DNA of 64,000 nucleotides from a virus. The translations under genes were made by a program, and so were the position numbers. Of the stretch, positions 19,543 to 23,377 are shown in pieces. Below the pieces are notes generated by a model. It was not told the origin of the DNA, ran no database searches, and saw nothing but the letters and a program-made list of their open reading frames with translations. The stretch spans positions 1 through 64,000 of IMG/VR virus record IMGVR_UViG_3300025115_000003. One strand, 5' to 3'. The stretch's first letter is position 1. Each line of letters opens with the position of its first letter.

Positions 19543-20106
19543 ATGTGCTTAGAAAACATTAGTGAAAAGAAAATTGCCAAACGTAATATTAAATGTTACA
19601 AATGGTTAAAAAAAGTATTTGATTTGACAACTCTTGCCAACGCTCACGGAAAGCCTTTTAAGGCTAAAATACGTGAAAAAGAAGTAGAAGGAGTAATTTC
19701 TATAAGTAGTAGTGGAGGTATATACTTTTGTCAAAATCATCATGATGGAGCAGATGCTTTTGATAAATTTGGATATGAATATTCTTGGGCAATGGATAGT
19801 AATGTATCTAATATAGCCGTTGAAGGAATTGAAGTCCCTTTTACTCTAATTACTCCATATCAGGAGATTCCTGTTGAAATAGGAAAAACCTATCTCTCAG
19901 AGGTGGAAGTAACTAATTCTATTATTGGGGAAGGACTACATTCTTTTTATGATTTAGAAGATGCAATTGATGATGCTGACGATAATTGGGTCATAGTAGA
20001 ATGTATAATTCCGAAAGGAAGTACATACTACAGTGGGACATTTATAGGATGGAAATCCTATGCTTCTAATGAATTGAAGTATGAAGAGATAGTAAGGGAA
20101 AGATAA
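19543..20106 (+). CDS. Hypothetical protein (MCL...VECIIPKG type) with inserted domain
   Basis: MCL..KIAKRNIKCYK / TPY..IGKTY / GLHSF / VECIIPKGS / YASN pattern seen in Bacteroidota phages. Confidence 0.75.
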   Translation: MCLENISEKKIAKRNIKCYKWLKKVFDLTTLANAHGKPFKAKIREKEVEGVISISSSGGIYFCQNHHDGADAFDKFGYEYSWAMDSNVSNIAVEGIEVPFTLITPYQEIPVEIGKTYLSEVEVTNSIIGEGLHSFYDLEDAIDDADDNWVIVECIIPKGSTYYSGTFIGWKSYASNELKYEEIVRER

Positions 20107-20113
20107 AAATAAT

Positions 20114-20159
20114 AAAGTAAGCCAATAATATTGATGTTGATGTTGTTGGCTTACTTTTT
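20114..20159 (+). terminator. Intrinsic terminator
   Basis: AAAGTAAGCCAATAATAT...ATGTTGTTGGCTTACTTT long stem plus T run. Confidence 0.7.
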
Positions 20160-20484
20160 AAATATAATATGAAATGATGAATGTGATAGAGAATTAGGCA
20201 CTGTTTCCTTCGGAAACTTTACTTAATCCTCAATCATTAAATTTATTATTTCTTTTTATAATGTTATTATTTATTATTTTTTATCTTTTAATCATACTAT
20301 ACTATCAAATATTATTACTTTTATAACCTCAATTAAACTTATATATCTATTATTATATAATGTTTATTTTTTATAAACTCTGTTAATGTTCCTTTAGTCA
20401 GAGTATAATTAAAACTATAAATAAAAGGAGTGCATTGCATGTAATATTGCATTAAGGTTGCTCAAACTCAAAAACTTATTAATC

Positions 20485-20691
20485 ATGTCACAGAACGAAT
20501 ATTCATCACAGGAATTATACCGTGCAGTATTAGCATGTGTTATATTCTCAACAGCCAATGATAATCAGGGACTTAAAGAAGTCGCTGGTAAAACCTTTGG
20601 AGACAAAGTACACACAATTATTCATCATACTCTTAATAGTAAGTCTGCTGTAGAGGTAGTAAGTAAATTAAAAACATTTACTGGTGAATAA
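20485..20691 (+). CDS. Hypothetical protein
   Basis: Likely ATG at 20485 after the TCAAACTCAAAAACTTATTA leader repeat. Confidence 0.65.
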   Translation: MSQNEYSSQELYRAVLACVIFSTANDNQGLKEVAGKTFGDKVHTIIHHTLNSKSAVEVVSKLKTFTGE

Positions 20692-20699
20692 AATAATTC

Positions 20700-20727
20700 T
20701 TTGAATTTCCCCTGCAATAACATCAAA
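20700..20727 (+). repeat. 28-bp direct repeat, copy 1
   Basis: TTTGAATTTCCCCTGCAATAACATCAAA; 23/28 identical to 21078-21105. Confidence 0.75.
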
Positions 20728-20728
20728 T

Positions 20729-21073
20729 ATGAAATATCTAATTATTACAACCGATAAAAGAAAAGTATTTGGTATCGGTACAATTATATTTGCTGATACT
20801 AAAATCTTTTTTGATGATATTTTAGGAAAAGAGTGTGAAGTTCCCTTTGCTGACATTTTAGAAATAAGAGAAGATTGTGAAAAATTCATTCCTTATCCTG
20901 AAGAAGAAGCAAATAGAATATTTAACAACTGGCCAGAAATATCTGAATTTTGGTATACTTCTGATATGAAAGCCTTTATTAGAGCAGAAGAAGCTGTTGA
21001 ACACAGTTTAACTCTAATTAATACAATTGTGATAAACTACTGTATATTAGAAGGTTCTACAATACAATCTTAA
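20729..21073 (+). CDS. Hypothetical protein between direct repeats
   Basis: 114-aa ORF co-oriented with the early block. Confidence 0.7.
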   Translation: MKYLIITTDKRKVFGIGTIIFADTKIFFDDILGKECEVPFADILEIREDCEKFIPYPEEEANRIFNNWPEISEFWYTSDMKAFIRAEEAVEHSLTLINTIVINYCILEGSTIQS

Positions 21074-21077
21074 TACA

Positions 21078-21119
21078 TTTGAGCTTCCCCTGCGATTATA
21101 TCAAAGGGGATTCTCTTTT
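21078..21119 (+). repeat. 28-bp direct repeat, copy 2, completing a terminator-like hairpin
   Basis: TTTGAGCTTCCCCTGCGATTATATCAAA then GGGGATTCTCTTTT. Confidence 0.75.
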
Positions 21120-21204
21120 AATAAAGTGGACTAAGCCACTATAAATAGTTGTTAGGCTTAGTGCGTTGCTTATAGCAGGTCAAACTCAAAAAAAACTTAT
21201 TATT

Positions 21205-21378
21205 ATGACACTATCATTTAATTTAATATGGACTGATTCAAAATCAAAAAATCGAATTCAGATGGAAAACATGAGTTCTAAATGTCTTGCTAATCTTATA
21301 ATTAGATTAGGAAATACTGCTATAGAACATGAAATTACCATTTGTCCAAATCAAGAGTATTTAGGAAAGCCTAAATAA
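21205..21378 (+). CDS. Hypothetical protein
   Basis: ATG at 21205 after the second TCAAACTCAAAAAAAACTTATTA leader. Confidence 0.55.
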   Translation: MTLSFNLIWTDSKSKNRIQMENMSSKCLANLIIRLGNTAIEHEITICPNQEYLGKPK

Positions 21379-21476
21379 TTGAAATGGAGATTTGAAAGAT
21401 TTGAGTTCCCCGAAATCTAAGGAAAGTAGGGGAACTATATTTAAATTAGCATAGGTAAAATTAAACAACGACAATT

Positions 21477-21653
21477 ATGAAATACTGTATTGCAGCTTGT
21501 GATAGATTTGAACAAATTCCTGATCCCTATAATAATGGTAGGATTTGCTTTAAGTCTAAAAATACCTTTTTTGATAGAACCGACCTTACAGGGATTATGA
21601 ATGACCCTAAATTCCTGTTCATAGTACACGATATTGTATATTTCAATACTTAA
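21477..21653 (+). CDS. Small hypothetical protein, 58 aa (not in ORF track)
   Basis: MKYCIAACDRF...IVYFNT*, on the local coding strand. Confidence 0.45.
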   Translation: MKYCIAACDRFEQIPDPYNNGRICFKSKNTFFDRTDLTGIMNDPKFLFIVHDIVYFNT

Positions 21654-21664
21654 ATCTATTTATT

Positions 21665-21922
21665 ATGAAAGTGAAGATGTTTACCAAAGATGAAAAATGT
21701 GAAAACATTATTTCAGTAAATGTATGTCATATGACGATGTTTGAAAAACATGAGATATGTTTGCATTTTAATGGTATGGGTAATATGATATCCGAAGATC
21801 AAATAAAATTTTTGGAAGTATGTATCAAAAACCACATATTGGTTGAAGTTCAAGGTCATGAAGTTACAATAATTCCCGAACCTAAGAACTTTCAAAGAGT
21901 TAGATTTCGTTTTGATTCTTAA
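21665..21922 (+). CDS. Hypothetical protein
   Basis: 85-aa ORF on coding strand. Confidence 0.65.
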   Translation: MKVKMFTKDEKCENIISVNVCHMTMFEKHEICLHFNGMGNMISEDQIKFLEVCIKNHILVEVQGHEVTIIPEPKNFQRVRFRFDS

Positions 21923-21923
21923 T

Positions 21924-22109
21924 AAAGAATGCTAACAAGTTTGGAGTGTGCGAAAACCTTTTCGACCTTTTATGGATTGGAAATAATAATGAATAATTAT
22001 TGCACATAATTCTATTTCCAAATAAGTTAGAGTTAATCGTAAACATAGGGATATATACTTATGTGATAAGATTAACTTCCATTCAACATAGATAGAGTGG
22101 ACATTCTTT
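21924..22109 (+). ncRNA. Candidate structured non-coding RNA (four-way junction)
   Basis: Four helices abut with no unpaired junction bases: 21924-31/22102-09, 21932-36/22026-30, 22031-38/22070-77, 22078-84/22095-101. Confidence 0.55.
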
Positions 22110-22113
22110 TTAT

Positions 22114-22187
22114 AATCTCATAGTTTAAACTGGTTATAATATTAGCTTTTATAGTTAAAGTTTCAGGTTCGATTCCTGATGAGATTG
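22114..22187 (+). tRNA. tRNA with anticodon TTA (ochre suppressor-like, or degenerate tRNA)
   Basis: Acceptor AATCTCA/TGAGATT; T8A9; D-loop with GG; anticodon stem TTAGC/GTTAA with loop TT-TTA-TA; T arm TCAGG-TTCGATT-CCTGA; discriminator G, then CAA rather than CCA. Confidence 0.75.
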
Positions 22188-22222
22188 CAATCTATTAAAT
22201 TATTAATTTAATACTTAAAGTT

Positions 22223-22612
22223 ATGCCATTTATTTCAAATCAAGATTTAAAACTTATTAATATTCACATAGATGAATTAAATAAGTTAATTGCTGATAGA
22301 ATACAGGATTTAATTAAAACCTTTACACAAAATGCAATTAAATCTATTAGCGCTAAAGCAAAAGAATATGCTGAAGTAGATATATCTAAAGCTATTGATT
22401 CCATCAGTATTGAAGAAGAAAGATTATCTCGACATACTTATTTTGCTTTAGGCGCTGGTAGTAAAGAAGCATTTAATTATAATTTTATTAAATCTGAATT
22501 GTTATTTGTTGAATTAATTACTATTGTTAGTAAACAAGAACAATTAGAAGAAAACATAAATGCATTTTATAGTTGGTTTATCCAAAAATTAAAAGAAAAT
22601 GAAAAAGATTAA
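22223..22612 (+). CDS. Hypothetical helical protein
   Basis: 129-aa ORF, first of an overlapping gene run. Confidence 0.7.
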   Translation: MPFISNQDLKLINIHIDELNKLIADRIQDLIKTFTQNAIKSISAKAKEYAEVDISKAIDSISIEEERLSRHTYFALGAGSKEAFNYNFIKSELLFVELITIVSKQEQLEENINAFYSWFIQKLKENEKD

Positions 22613-22877
22613 AGACGTACTTGAGGCAATTACAATAAGAGATGCCATAAATGGTAATCATATAACTGTTACAGATTTAGTAGGAGCAATTCTTCCAGAT
22701 AATACCTTTAGAAAAGCCATTCCTGCTAAATTCATGTTTGTTATTTTTATAAAGGATAAGACTAAGTATTATTCTCAACATTATAATACAAAGGAAGATT
22801 TATTCTTTGCTATGTATGATGTTGTAAAAATTCACGGTAAAGAAAATGTTACACATATAAAAATCGAAGAAGTATGA
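22599..22877 (+). CDS. Hypothetical protein
   Basis: Overlaps both neighbours. Confidence 0.7.
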   Translation: MKKIKDVLEAITIRDAINGNHITVTDLVGAILPDNTFRKAIPAKFMFVIFIKDKTKYYSQHYNTKEDLFFAMYDVVKIHGKENVTHIKIEEV

Positions 22878-23377
22878 TAGGAACAATAAAAGCATTTCCT
22901 GTAACAGGAAAAATCAAAGAAGGAGTAACTGTACTAACTTCTGAAGGGGAAGTAGTAAAAGTCACTGAAGTAAAGGACAACATTGTAGTTTGTGCAAATG
23001 ATAAAAGTTATTCCTTAAGTGTAGTTACATTAATAAAAAAATATGTAGTAAATCGCAATAAAATTGCAGAATTACATTTTAGCGATTACCAATTATCTTT
23101 GGATAAAAAGGTTGAAGTAGCTACAAAGGAATCTTTAGTTAATGGTTTCATAGGAGACCACGTGAGAATCTTTAAAGTATCTGCTGATATGTTAAATTCA
23201 GATGAGTATTTAAAGATTGAACCTATTAACGGTGTTATTGTTGATATTGGTGATAATATGTATGAGGTTGAAACAATCTATGGTAAGAAGTTTAAAGTAA
23301 GGCGACATTACTTTGAAATTCTTACACGTAAGAATACTAAATTAGTTGGTAAATATATACGTGATGTTGACATTTAA
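22874..23377 (+). CDS. Hypothetical protein, possibly tandem SH3/KOW-like barrels
   Basis: ATGA overlap; IKEGVTVL and IGDHVRI beta-rich segments. Confidence 0.65.
   Translation: MIGTIKAFPVTGKIKEGVTVLTSEGEVVKVTEVKDNIVVCANDKSYSLSVVTLIKKYVVNRNKIAELHFSDYQLSLDKKVEVATKESLVNGFIGDHVRIFKVSADMLNSDEYLKIEPINGVIVDIGDNMYEVETIYGKKFKVRRHYFEILTRKNTKLVGKYIRDVDI

Follow-up and report, generated by a model that had tools for sequence, protein, structure and literature searches.

Elaborate non-coding RNAs recur next to the tRNA genes of bacteriophages, as is seen with rnaC and rnaD of T4, GOLLD and ROOL. GOLLD and ROOL are ornate RNAs of phages and prophages that often occur near tRNA islands, and some GOLLD RNAs carry tRNAs in a linker (PMC12286853). 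Theta ribozymes, which are minimal ribozymes of the hepatitis delta virus (HDV)-like kind, adjoin phage tRNAs, often suppressors, and have been proposed as an alternative to the enzymes acting at tRNA 3' ends (PMC10879173). The natural hairpin and twister-sister ribozymes use four-way junctions; in twister-sister the closing helix is interrupted between P1 and P2 by the cleavage loop L1, and there is also a conserved SL4 loop (PMC5660989). The present analysis concerns a 186-nt RNA domain, encoded by IMG/VR virus record IMGVR_UViG_3300025115_000003, which folds around a four-way junction and ends immediately upstream of a tRNA gene. The window analysed is the first 64 kb (positions 1 to 64,000) of this 85,693-bp record, and all coordinates refer to it. 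The domain is compact and its fold is unusually clean, and within about 1.1 kb of it are found a self-cleaving ribozyme as well as a tRNA for the main stop codon of the phage.

The four-way-junction fold

The domain is most likely a genuine plus-strand RNA structure, as opposed to a signal in the DNA or a coding sequence. It is built from the following elements.

21924 to 22109, plus strand: structured RNA domain of 186 nt, with 63 base pairs and a perfectly stacked four-way junction that has no unpaired junction base
21924 to 21931, plus strand: 5' strand of P1, AAAGAATG, which pairs with CATTCTTT at 22102 to 22109 in 8 uninterrupted base pairs; the closing helix, which clamps both ends of the domain
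21932 to 22030, plus strand: P2 arm of 99 nt, made up of a 5-bp base, a 2x2 loop (AA/AA), a 7-bp helix, a 9-nt bulge and a 6-bp helix
22031 to 22077, plus strand: P3 arm of 47 nt, made up of 8 bp, an asymmetric 4x5 internal loop (GUAA/GAUAA), 7 bp and an 8-nt loop
22078 to 22101, plus strand: P4 hairpin, in which 22078 to 22084 pairs with 22095 to 22101 in 7 bp including U22082-G22097, with the 10-nt loop AACAUAGAUA
22102 to 22109, plus strand: 3' strand of P1, with a strain breakpoint at its 3' edge, the loose ends of other contigs beginning at 22109/22110

The unconstrained minimum free energy (MFE) fold reproduced, base for base, the four helices P1 to P4 and the gapless junction proposed in an earlier reading of this DNA (hereafter the original prediction). 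The MFE of the domain is -53.4 kcal/mol as against -29.0 +/- 3.7 kcal/mol for 200 dinucleotide shuffles (z -6.58), and none of 4,000 further dinucleotide shuffles reached so low an energy (best -43.5 kcal/mol; z -6.39), which bears out the claim of a structured RNA. Pair probabilities lie between 0.85 and 1.0 across P1 to P4 with the sole exception of the outermost P1 pair (0.52); the A-U-rich P1 helix has seven of its eight pairs at probabilities of 0.9 to 1.0. The fold is unaltered within 366 nt of context. Each of the other arms, when folded singly, was found to be more stable than its own shuffles (z -3.8 for P2, -5.4 for P3 and -3.3 for P4), and the energy of the P3 arm was not matched by any of 500 shuffles. 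When 186-nt windows were scanned over the whole 85.7-kb genome (mean -27.6 kcal/mol, standard deviation 7.1), only three windows of the plus strand had a lower energy than the domain.

The fold is strongly biased towards one strand, as had been claimed from the G-T pairs of the helices. The MFE of the minus strand is only -33.6 kcal/mol (z -2.37), and this value was used for the comparison of the strands in preference to the energy of the mirrored structure, which was set aside as the program scores A-C as pairs. Six G-U pairs are available on the plus strand only and become A-C mismatches on the other. The strand bias and the G-U pairs together are expected from selection on a plus-strand RNA and not from a DNA cruciform or a transposon end.

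The tip of P2 is a three-way fork bearing two small hairpins. The original prediction had given this arm two alternative interiors. The second of these does exist as a complementarity of 9 bp; however, a fold forced to contain it reaches -44.6 kcal/mol against -53.4 kcal/mol, a cost of 8.8 kcal/mol that leaves it unpopulated at equilibrium. A switch, which had been listed among the possible functions, is disfavoured because of this cost. The AUAGA of the P4 loop is complementary over five bases to the UCUAU of the P2 bulge, and the two could make a contact.

The early transcript and its genome

The immediate surroundings of the domain are a small gene on its 5' side and a tRNA gene on its 3' side, with a second catalogued RNA further upstream.

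21125 to 21184, plus strand: pistol self-cleaving ribozyme (RF02679; score 58.8 bits, cut-off 34.5), flanked by two small early genes and 740 nt upstream of the domain
21665 to 21922, plus strand: upstream open reading frame (ORF) of 85 aa, with its stop codon TAA at 21920 to 21922, 1 nt ahead of P1, and a further in-frame TAA that overlaps P1
22110 to 22113, plus strand: 4-nt spacer TTAT, the 5' leader of the tRNA; an RNase P cut would be expected after 22113
22114 to 22188, plus strand: tRNA with anticodon UUA, which reads UAA, called by ARAGORN and by the Rfam tRNA model (54.4 bits)

The placement given in the original prediction is thereby exact, the paired ends of P1 spanning 21924 to 22109 between a stop codon 1 nt away and a tRNA that begins 4 nt later at 22114. 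The 85-aa protein has no Pfam or PHROG family and no usable Atlas match, and its AlphaFold2 (AF2) model has a predicted local distance difference test score (pLDDT) of 42. A 10-bp hairpin is formed just 5' of the domain in the 366-nt fold (21895 to 21921, plus strand) and covers the end of this ORF, from its last codons to the first base of the stop. Short ORFs inside the domain, such as one of 26 aa at 21929 to 22009, span only part of P1 and P2. The tandem in-frame TAA codons at the end of the upstream ORF argue against designed read-through into the domain.

The tRNA is the only one found by ARAGORN in the 85.7-kb genome, and it carries U at position 37. The phage uses the standard genetic code, with ORFs of at least 100 aa spanning 87% of the genome and TAA closing 52 of the 70 long ORFs. 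Tandem back-up stops are not enriched, being present in 3 of the 52 ORFs that end in TAA as against about 8% expected.

Co-transcription of the domain with its neighbours had been proposed and remains the simplest reading, since the small genes, the pistol ribozyme, the domain and the tRNA lie on the same strand, which is the coding strand of the early block, and a scan of the plus strand lists no terminator-like site between 20537 and 23753. The tRNA would then be a processing point within a single transcript. RNase P matures the 5' end of every tRNA, and a cut at 22113/22114 would leave a 3' end 4 nt past P1, in keeping with the suggestion that the domain could be released by tRNA 5' processing.

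Pistol ribozymes cleave at a G-U dinucleotide (PMC6154101), which places the predicted cut of the present example between G21179 and U21180. The predicted product would be an mRNA 5' end that starts with TCAAACTCAAAAA...CTTATTA..ATG, and this leader recurs at 20462 to 20487, ahead of an ORF that starts at 20485. The phage thus probably already cuts its early transcript by RNA catalysis, given the pistol match and a predicted cut that yields a recurrent leader. A low-depth variant of the pistol, with 10 other letters and 2 gaps, was also observed in the source sequencing run.

Further upstream, a second structured block without genes lies at 20100 to 20460 of the plus strand (z -7.15). It contains a near-perfect, terminator-like hairpin of 17 bp with a T-run at about 20116 to 20158, and a long hairpin with a UUCG loop at about 20171 to 20256, followed by the motif TTCTTTTTATAAT. 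The same motif is also found at 22104 to 22116, across the end of P1 and the tRNA leader.

The record is a freshwater crAss-like phage, because its helicase resembles those of crAssphage and other Crassvirales (31-36% identity) and the sole sequencing run containing the region is a freshwater metagenome, which is probably the source. The nearest relatives of this Dda-like helicase among 5.8 billion proteins are just 58% identical. The record has a CheckV completeness of 94% and a G+C content of about 27%. The minus strand carries the genes up to about 18 kb and again beyond 46 kb; those from 18 to 46 kb lie on the plus strand, and the GC skew is positive across this interval. In addition to the helicase, the genes include a family-B DNA polymerase and two giant ORFs, one of 2,518 aa and one of more than 3,300 aa.

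Known families, relatives and co-occurring strains

The domain matches no Rfam family. When the whole window was searched with Rfam 15, only the pistol and the tRNA passed the gathering score, and a search of 21900 to 22125 (226 nt) at E-values up to 10 gave only sub-threshold chance matches, the best being snoZ122 with 27.4 bits against a cut-off of 38. The family had likewise gone unrecognised in the original prediction. The Rfam result excludes a recognisable tRNA-like RNA, Y-RNA, 6S RNA, GOLLD, ROOL, hairpin, twister-sister, hatchet, hammerhead or HDV-like RNA. ARAGORN and the Rfam tRNA model called nothing inside 21924 to 22109, their only call being the tRNA at 22114 to 22188. An intrinsic terminator, which calls for a G+C-rich hairpin directly ahead of a U-run, was also rejected, as the consensus scan lists none at 21900 to 22200, the P1 helix is rich in A-U pairs, and TTTTTAT makes only a short U-rich tail.

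Relatives were sought at the level of sequence and of structure. No relative was obtained with blastn of 21600 to 22300 against 50,697 GenBank phages, nor did single IMG/VR queries with both flanking small proteins, the helicase and the closest helicase relative (P0009) lead to any relative of the domain. An IMG/VR search with the exact pattern of the 3' half of the tRNA was empty, and so was nhmmer with the RNA and tRNA as query against 112 helicase-neighbour loci and 48 pistol-pattern loci. The 89% identical relative of the downstream gene, P0002, lies on a 2,295-bp contig and its alignment is confined to residues 28 to 129. For structural searches, a covariance model (R1) was built from the single sequence and its fold, and such a model is weak for distant relatives. 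R1 scores its own domain at 222.6 bits, which is its sole copy in the window, and a genome-wide DNA search likewise shows the domain to be present once. Against 1.75 Mb or so of other loci (L002 to L176), comprising helicase neighbourhoods from IMG/VR, JGI metagenomes and GTDB genomes, 48 loci with the pistol core pattern and 9 with a P4-P1 pattern, the best R1 match had an E-value of 0.96 and was due to chance; this set leaves out the closest relatives (56-58% helicase identity). R1 was also empty in one whole IMG/VR relative, in five gut crAss-like genomes, in the tRNA cluster of T4 and in 154 bacterial genomes, 151 of which are of Bacteroidota. Rfam found no family in the loci of eight relatives, so that neither the pistol nor the tRNA is syntenic there, and pistol, tRNA and domain all appear to be accessory to this lineage. 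Thus, the domain is an orphan in the collections searched rather than shown to be unique, and it is probably a real phage RNA.

Two other arrangements around phage tRNAs were noted. The flanks of eight tRNAs in four gut crAss genomes were scanned and gave one strong signal, without a four-way junction, in cr271_1 (MT774394.1, a pig-gut crAss-like phage; L188, 1150 to 1500, at about 66.6 to 66.9 kb). It is a row of near-perfect hairpins upstream of a tRNA-Gln (z -6.4 over 351 nt) and resembles stacked terminators in a gene-free stretch. The related IMG/VR contigs L137, L144 and L162 share a tRNA array of Lys, Ile, Arg, Leu and Glu, with spacers of 340-450 nt among the first four tRNAs and a pistol-like pattern match a few kb away.

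The contigs of the source run, when placed on 20400 to 22900, reveal a mosaic population; as the run is the probable source sample, and the reasoning uses overlaps and depth sums, this evidence is not independent of the record. The depth of the main-path contigs drops stepwise from 121.7 to 75.8, 56.5 and 47.7, with branch points at about 20508 to 20537, 21527 to 21556 and 22052 to 22081. These steps and branch points indicate that several co-occurring strains are alike on the left side of the early region and diverge to the right. The contig of depth 56.5 (21527 to 22081) carries the upstream gene and most of the domain, and is continued from 22052 by two contigs, namely the main path with the tRNA (depth 47.7) and a 656-nt contig (depth 8.1) that matches 22052 to 22110 with two other letters and is unlike thereafter. 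A further small contig is common only over 22074 to 22109, that is P4 and the 3' strand of P1, and is unlike on both sides. Both foreign continuations open with runs of six T. Since 47.7 and 8.1 add up to about 56.5, the contigs are suggestive of a co-occurring strain at about 15% abundance that has the upstream ORF and the RNA to 22081, followed from 22110 by a different module without this tRNA cassette. The link to the tRNA drawn in the original prediction does not seem obligatory in view of this apparent strain, with its unlike DNA from 22110. Because a strain appears to keep the domain without this tRNA cassette, the domain has the look of a separate module whose 3' edge is prone to recombination, and not of a dedicated tRNA leader.

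Possible roles and comparison with described RNAs

The explanation that is tentatively preferred, and in which some doubt is warranted, is that of a nuclease-resistant plus-strand RNA domain that forms a separate module within the early polycistronic transcript and has a role of its own in binding a phage or host factor. The domain would be transcribed together with its neighbours, and the RNase P cut after 22113 would leave a 3' tail of 4 nt beside the 8-bp P1, a toehold presumably too short for 3' exonucleases. Thereafter it could remain joined to the upstream message, whose 3' end it would protect, or a second cut upstream could yield a free RNA of about 190 nt. In either form it may act as an RNA itself, serving as a protein-binding scaffold or decoy, by analogy with the stable RNAs of the T4 tRNA cluster, which are thought to do so. 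The role is probably that of the domain itself and not a service to the tRNA, because a strain appears to keep the domain without the tRNA cassette. The presence of an RNA-processing element, the pistol, in the same gene block is also counted in support.

Several points weigh against this explanation. No relative of the domain came out of the collections searched, which leaves it with neither covariation nor conservation outside a single sample; no RNA run is listed among the sequencing runs containing the region. The strain evidence, being drawn from contig overlaps and depth sums in the probable source run, is not an independent line of support. A plain hairpin would suffice for protection of a 3' end, which leaves the elaborate shape unexplained, and neither a cut site nor a promoter can be seen that might set a 5' end. 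Ribosomes that terminate at 21920 to 21922 would need to melt P1. Both partner and function of the domain are purely inferred.

Among the alternatives, a cis-acting boundary is unlikely, though the least unlikely of them. The domain would in this case be the structured 3' end of the upstream message, acting as a leaky terminator or exonuclease block, and a conserved junction for cassette exchange, with no function in trans. Its start 1 nt past the stop codon and its presence on the same contig as the upstream gene would fit such a boundary, as would the strain breakpoints at its 3' edge, the occurrence of the motif TTCTTTTTATAAT also 3' of the large hairpin at 20171 to 20256, and the T-rich TTTTTAT after P1, the place of which is taken by runs of six T in the loose ends of both other contigs. 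T-runs, however, are common at 27% G+C, the terminator scan is empty here, and an A-U-rich P1 closing a multi-arm body of 170 nt is unlike canonical intrinsic terminators; a length of 186 nt and four perfect arms also far exceed the needs of protection. The strain breakpoints, together with the perfect 8-bp terminal inverted repeats formed by P1 and the occurrence of the fragment 22074 to 22109 in another context, could be expected of a DNA-level element (a non-autonomous mobile element, a recombination site or an origin-like cruciform) of which the RNA fold is a by-product. Such an element is very improbable in view of the difference between the strands (-53.4 against -33.6 kcal/mol) and the six G-U pairs of the plus strand, and neither a target-site duplication, a second copy in the genome nor a nearby transposase or nuclease gene was found. 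That the structure arose by chance in an A+T-rich spacer, or that the stretch is a short coding region (the 26-aa ORF at 21929 to 22009, or read-through of the TAA to a TAG at 22027), is just as hard to credit. Conservation could not be shown, and A+T-rich phage spacers are rich in hairpins, the block at 20100 to 20460 with its z of -7.15 being one example; but none of the 4,000 composition-matched shuffles came within 9.9 kcal/mol of the domain, three arms are individually significant and the junction is exact. As regards coding, the two tandem in-frame TAA codons speak against designed read-through, and the candidate ORFs cover only part of P1 and P2.

The remaining alternatives attribute a more active role to the domain. 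A new, or unrecognisably diverged, four-way self-cleaving ribozyme, which would free the upstream message or the 5' end of the tRNA without RNase P, is improbable, although a bona fide pistol lies 740 nt upstream in the same plus-strand gene block. Self-cleaving ribozymes are known to cluster, and it was reportedly through such clustering that Weinberg et al. in 2015 discovered pistol, hatchet and twister-sister. The adjacent arms P2 and P3 carry internal loops, as do those of the natural four-way hairpin ribozyme. The four-way junction also matches the natural forms of the hairpin and twister-sister ribozymes (PMC5660989). On the other hand, no ribozyme model matches in the 226-nt search at E-values up to 10, the closing helix has no internal loop where twister-sister is cleaved, there are no conserved nucleotides to indicate a core, 186 nt exceeds the size of most small ribozymes, and the regular helices leave little for a catalytic core. 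Still more doubtful is a gate on the maturation of the UAA-reading tRNA, in which the formed P1 sets a leader of just 4 nt against a bulky junction, and so makes a poor substrate for RNase P, until terminating ribosomes melt it and thereby extend the leader from 4 to 12 nt, so that the supply of suppressor would depend on translation of the upstream gene. The geometry is exact, with the stop codon 1 nt before P1 and the end of P1 4 nt before the tRNA, and RNase P holoenzymes contact single-stranded nucleotides of the leader. As TAA is the main stop under the standard code (52 of 70 long ORFs), tight control would be expected of an ochre suppressor. However, back-up stops are not enriched in the genome, no alternative pairing with the tRNA is seen in the context fold, P1 alone would do for a gate and leaves P2 to P4 unexplained, and the co-occurring strain seems to keep the RNA before unlike DNA, without this tRNA cassette. 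Taken together, a new catalytic or gating RNA, whether a four-way self-cleaving ribozyme alongside the pistol or a translation-sensitive clamp on suppressor-tRNA maturation, is a poor prospect, but if true it would mean a new RNA class and a new phage control of decoding. If the domain were only a stable end-cap, it would show how a crAss-like phage punctuates its early transcripts.

The preferred explanation, a stable module with a role of its own, draws on T4, whose rnaC (species 1, 139 nt) and rnaD (species 2, 119 nt) come closest to the domain in setting and form among described RNAs and were folded here for comparison. These are likewise non-coding RNAs that adjoin phage tRNAs on the same strand, rnaD at 1 nt from a tRNA-Arg and rnaC 6 nt further, as the domain lies 4 nt from its tRNA with no terminator-like site between; and for them too release is presumably the work of the tRNA-processing machinery. 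In T4 the RNAs are found downstream of the tRNA, whereas the domain lies upstream. rnaC has a closed multi-arm fold (z -4.6) with the same long-middle-short order of arms as the domain. Its last arm, however, is a true tRNA T-arm with the loop GUUCGAAUC, while P4 of the domain has a 7-bp stem and the unrelated 10-nt loop AACAUAGAUA. rnaD folds no better than its shuffles (z -0.8). The domain is larger than either T4 RNA and its junction has no unpaired bases, and there is no similarity in sequence or by model, R1 being empty in the T4 cluster.

GOLLD (RF01998) and ROOL (RF03087) have in common with the domain the habit of being phage-encoded beside tRNAs, and neither Rfam model matches it. They are RNAs of 500 to more than 800 nt with pseudoknots that form multimeric cages, in contrast to the 186 nt of the domain, which requires no pseudoknot. 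The likeness to the twister-sister and hairpin ribozymes consists of the four-way junction, the internal loops in junction arms and the proximity of another ribozyme, the pistol. The L1 loop of twister-sister (RF02681) is absent, as the eight pairs of P1 continue uninterrupted straight into P2, and its model does not match. The hairpin ribozyme (RF00173) gives no match at E-values up to 10, and the loops of P2 and P3 (AA/AA and GUAA/GAUAA) do not fit its loop A or loop B consensus. Theta ribozymes are small HDV-like RNAs of gut phages with a role on the 3' side of the tRNA, whereas the domain is a four-way junction on the 5' side in a freshwater phage, and no HDV-like model matches within it. 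Thus, the domain most likely belongs in kind with the small stable RNAs that phages encode beside their tRNAs.

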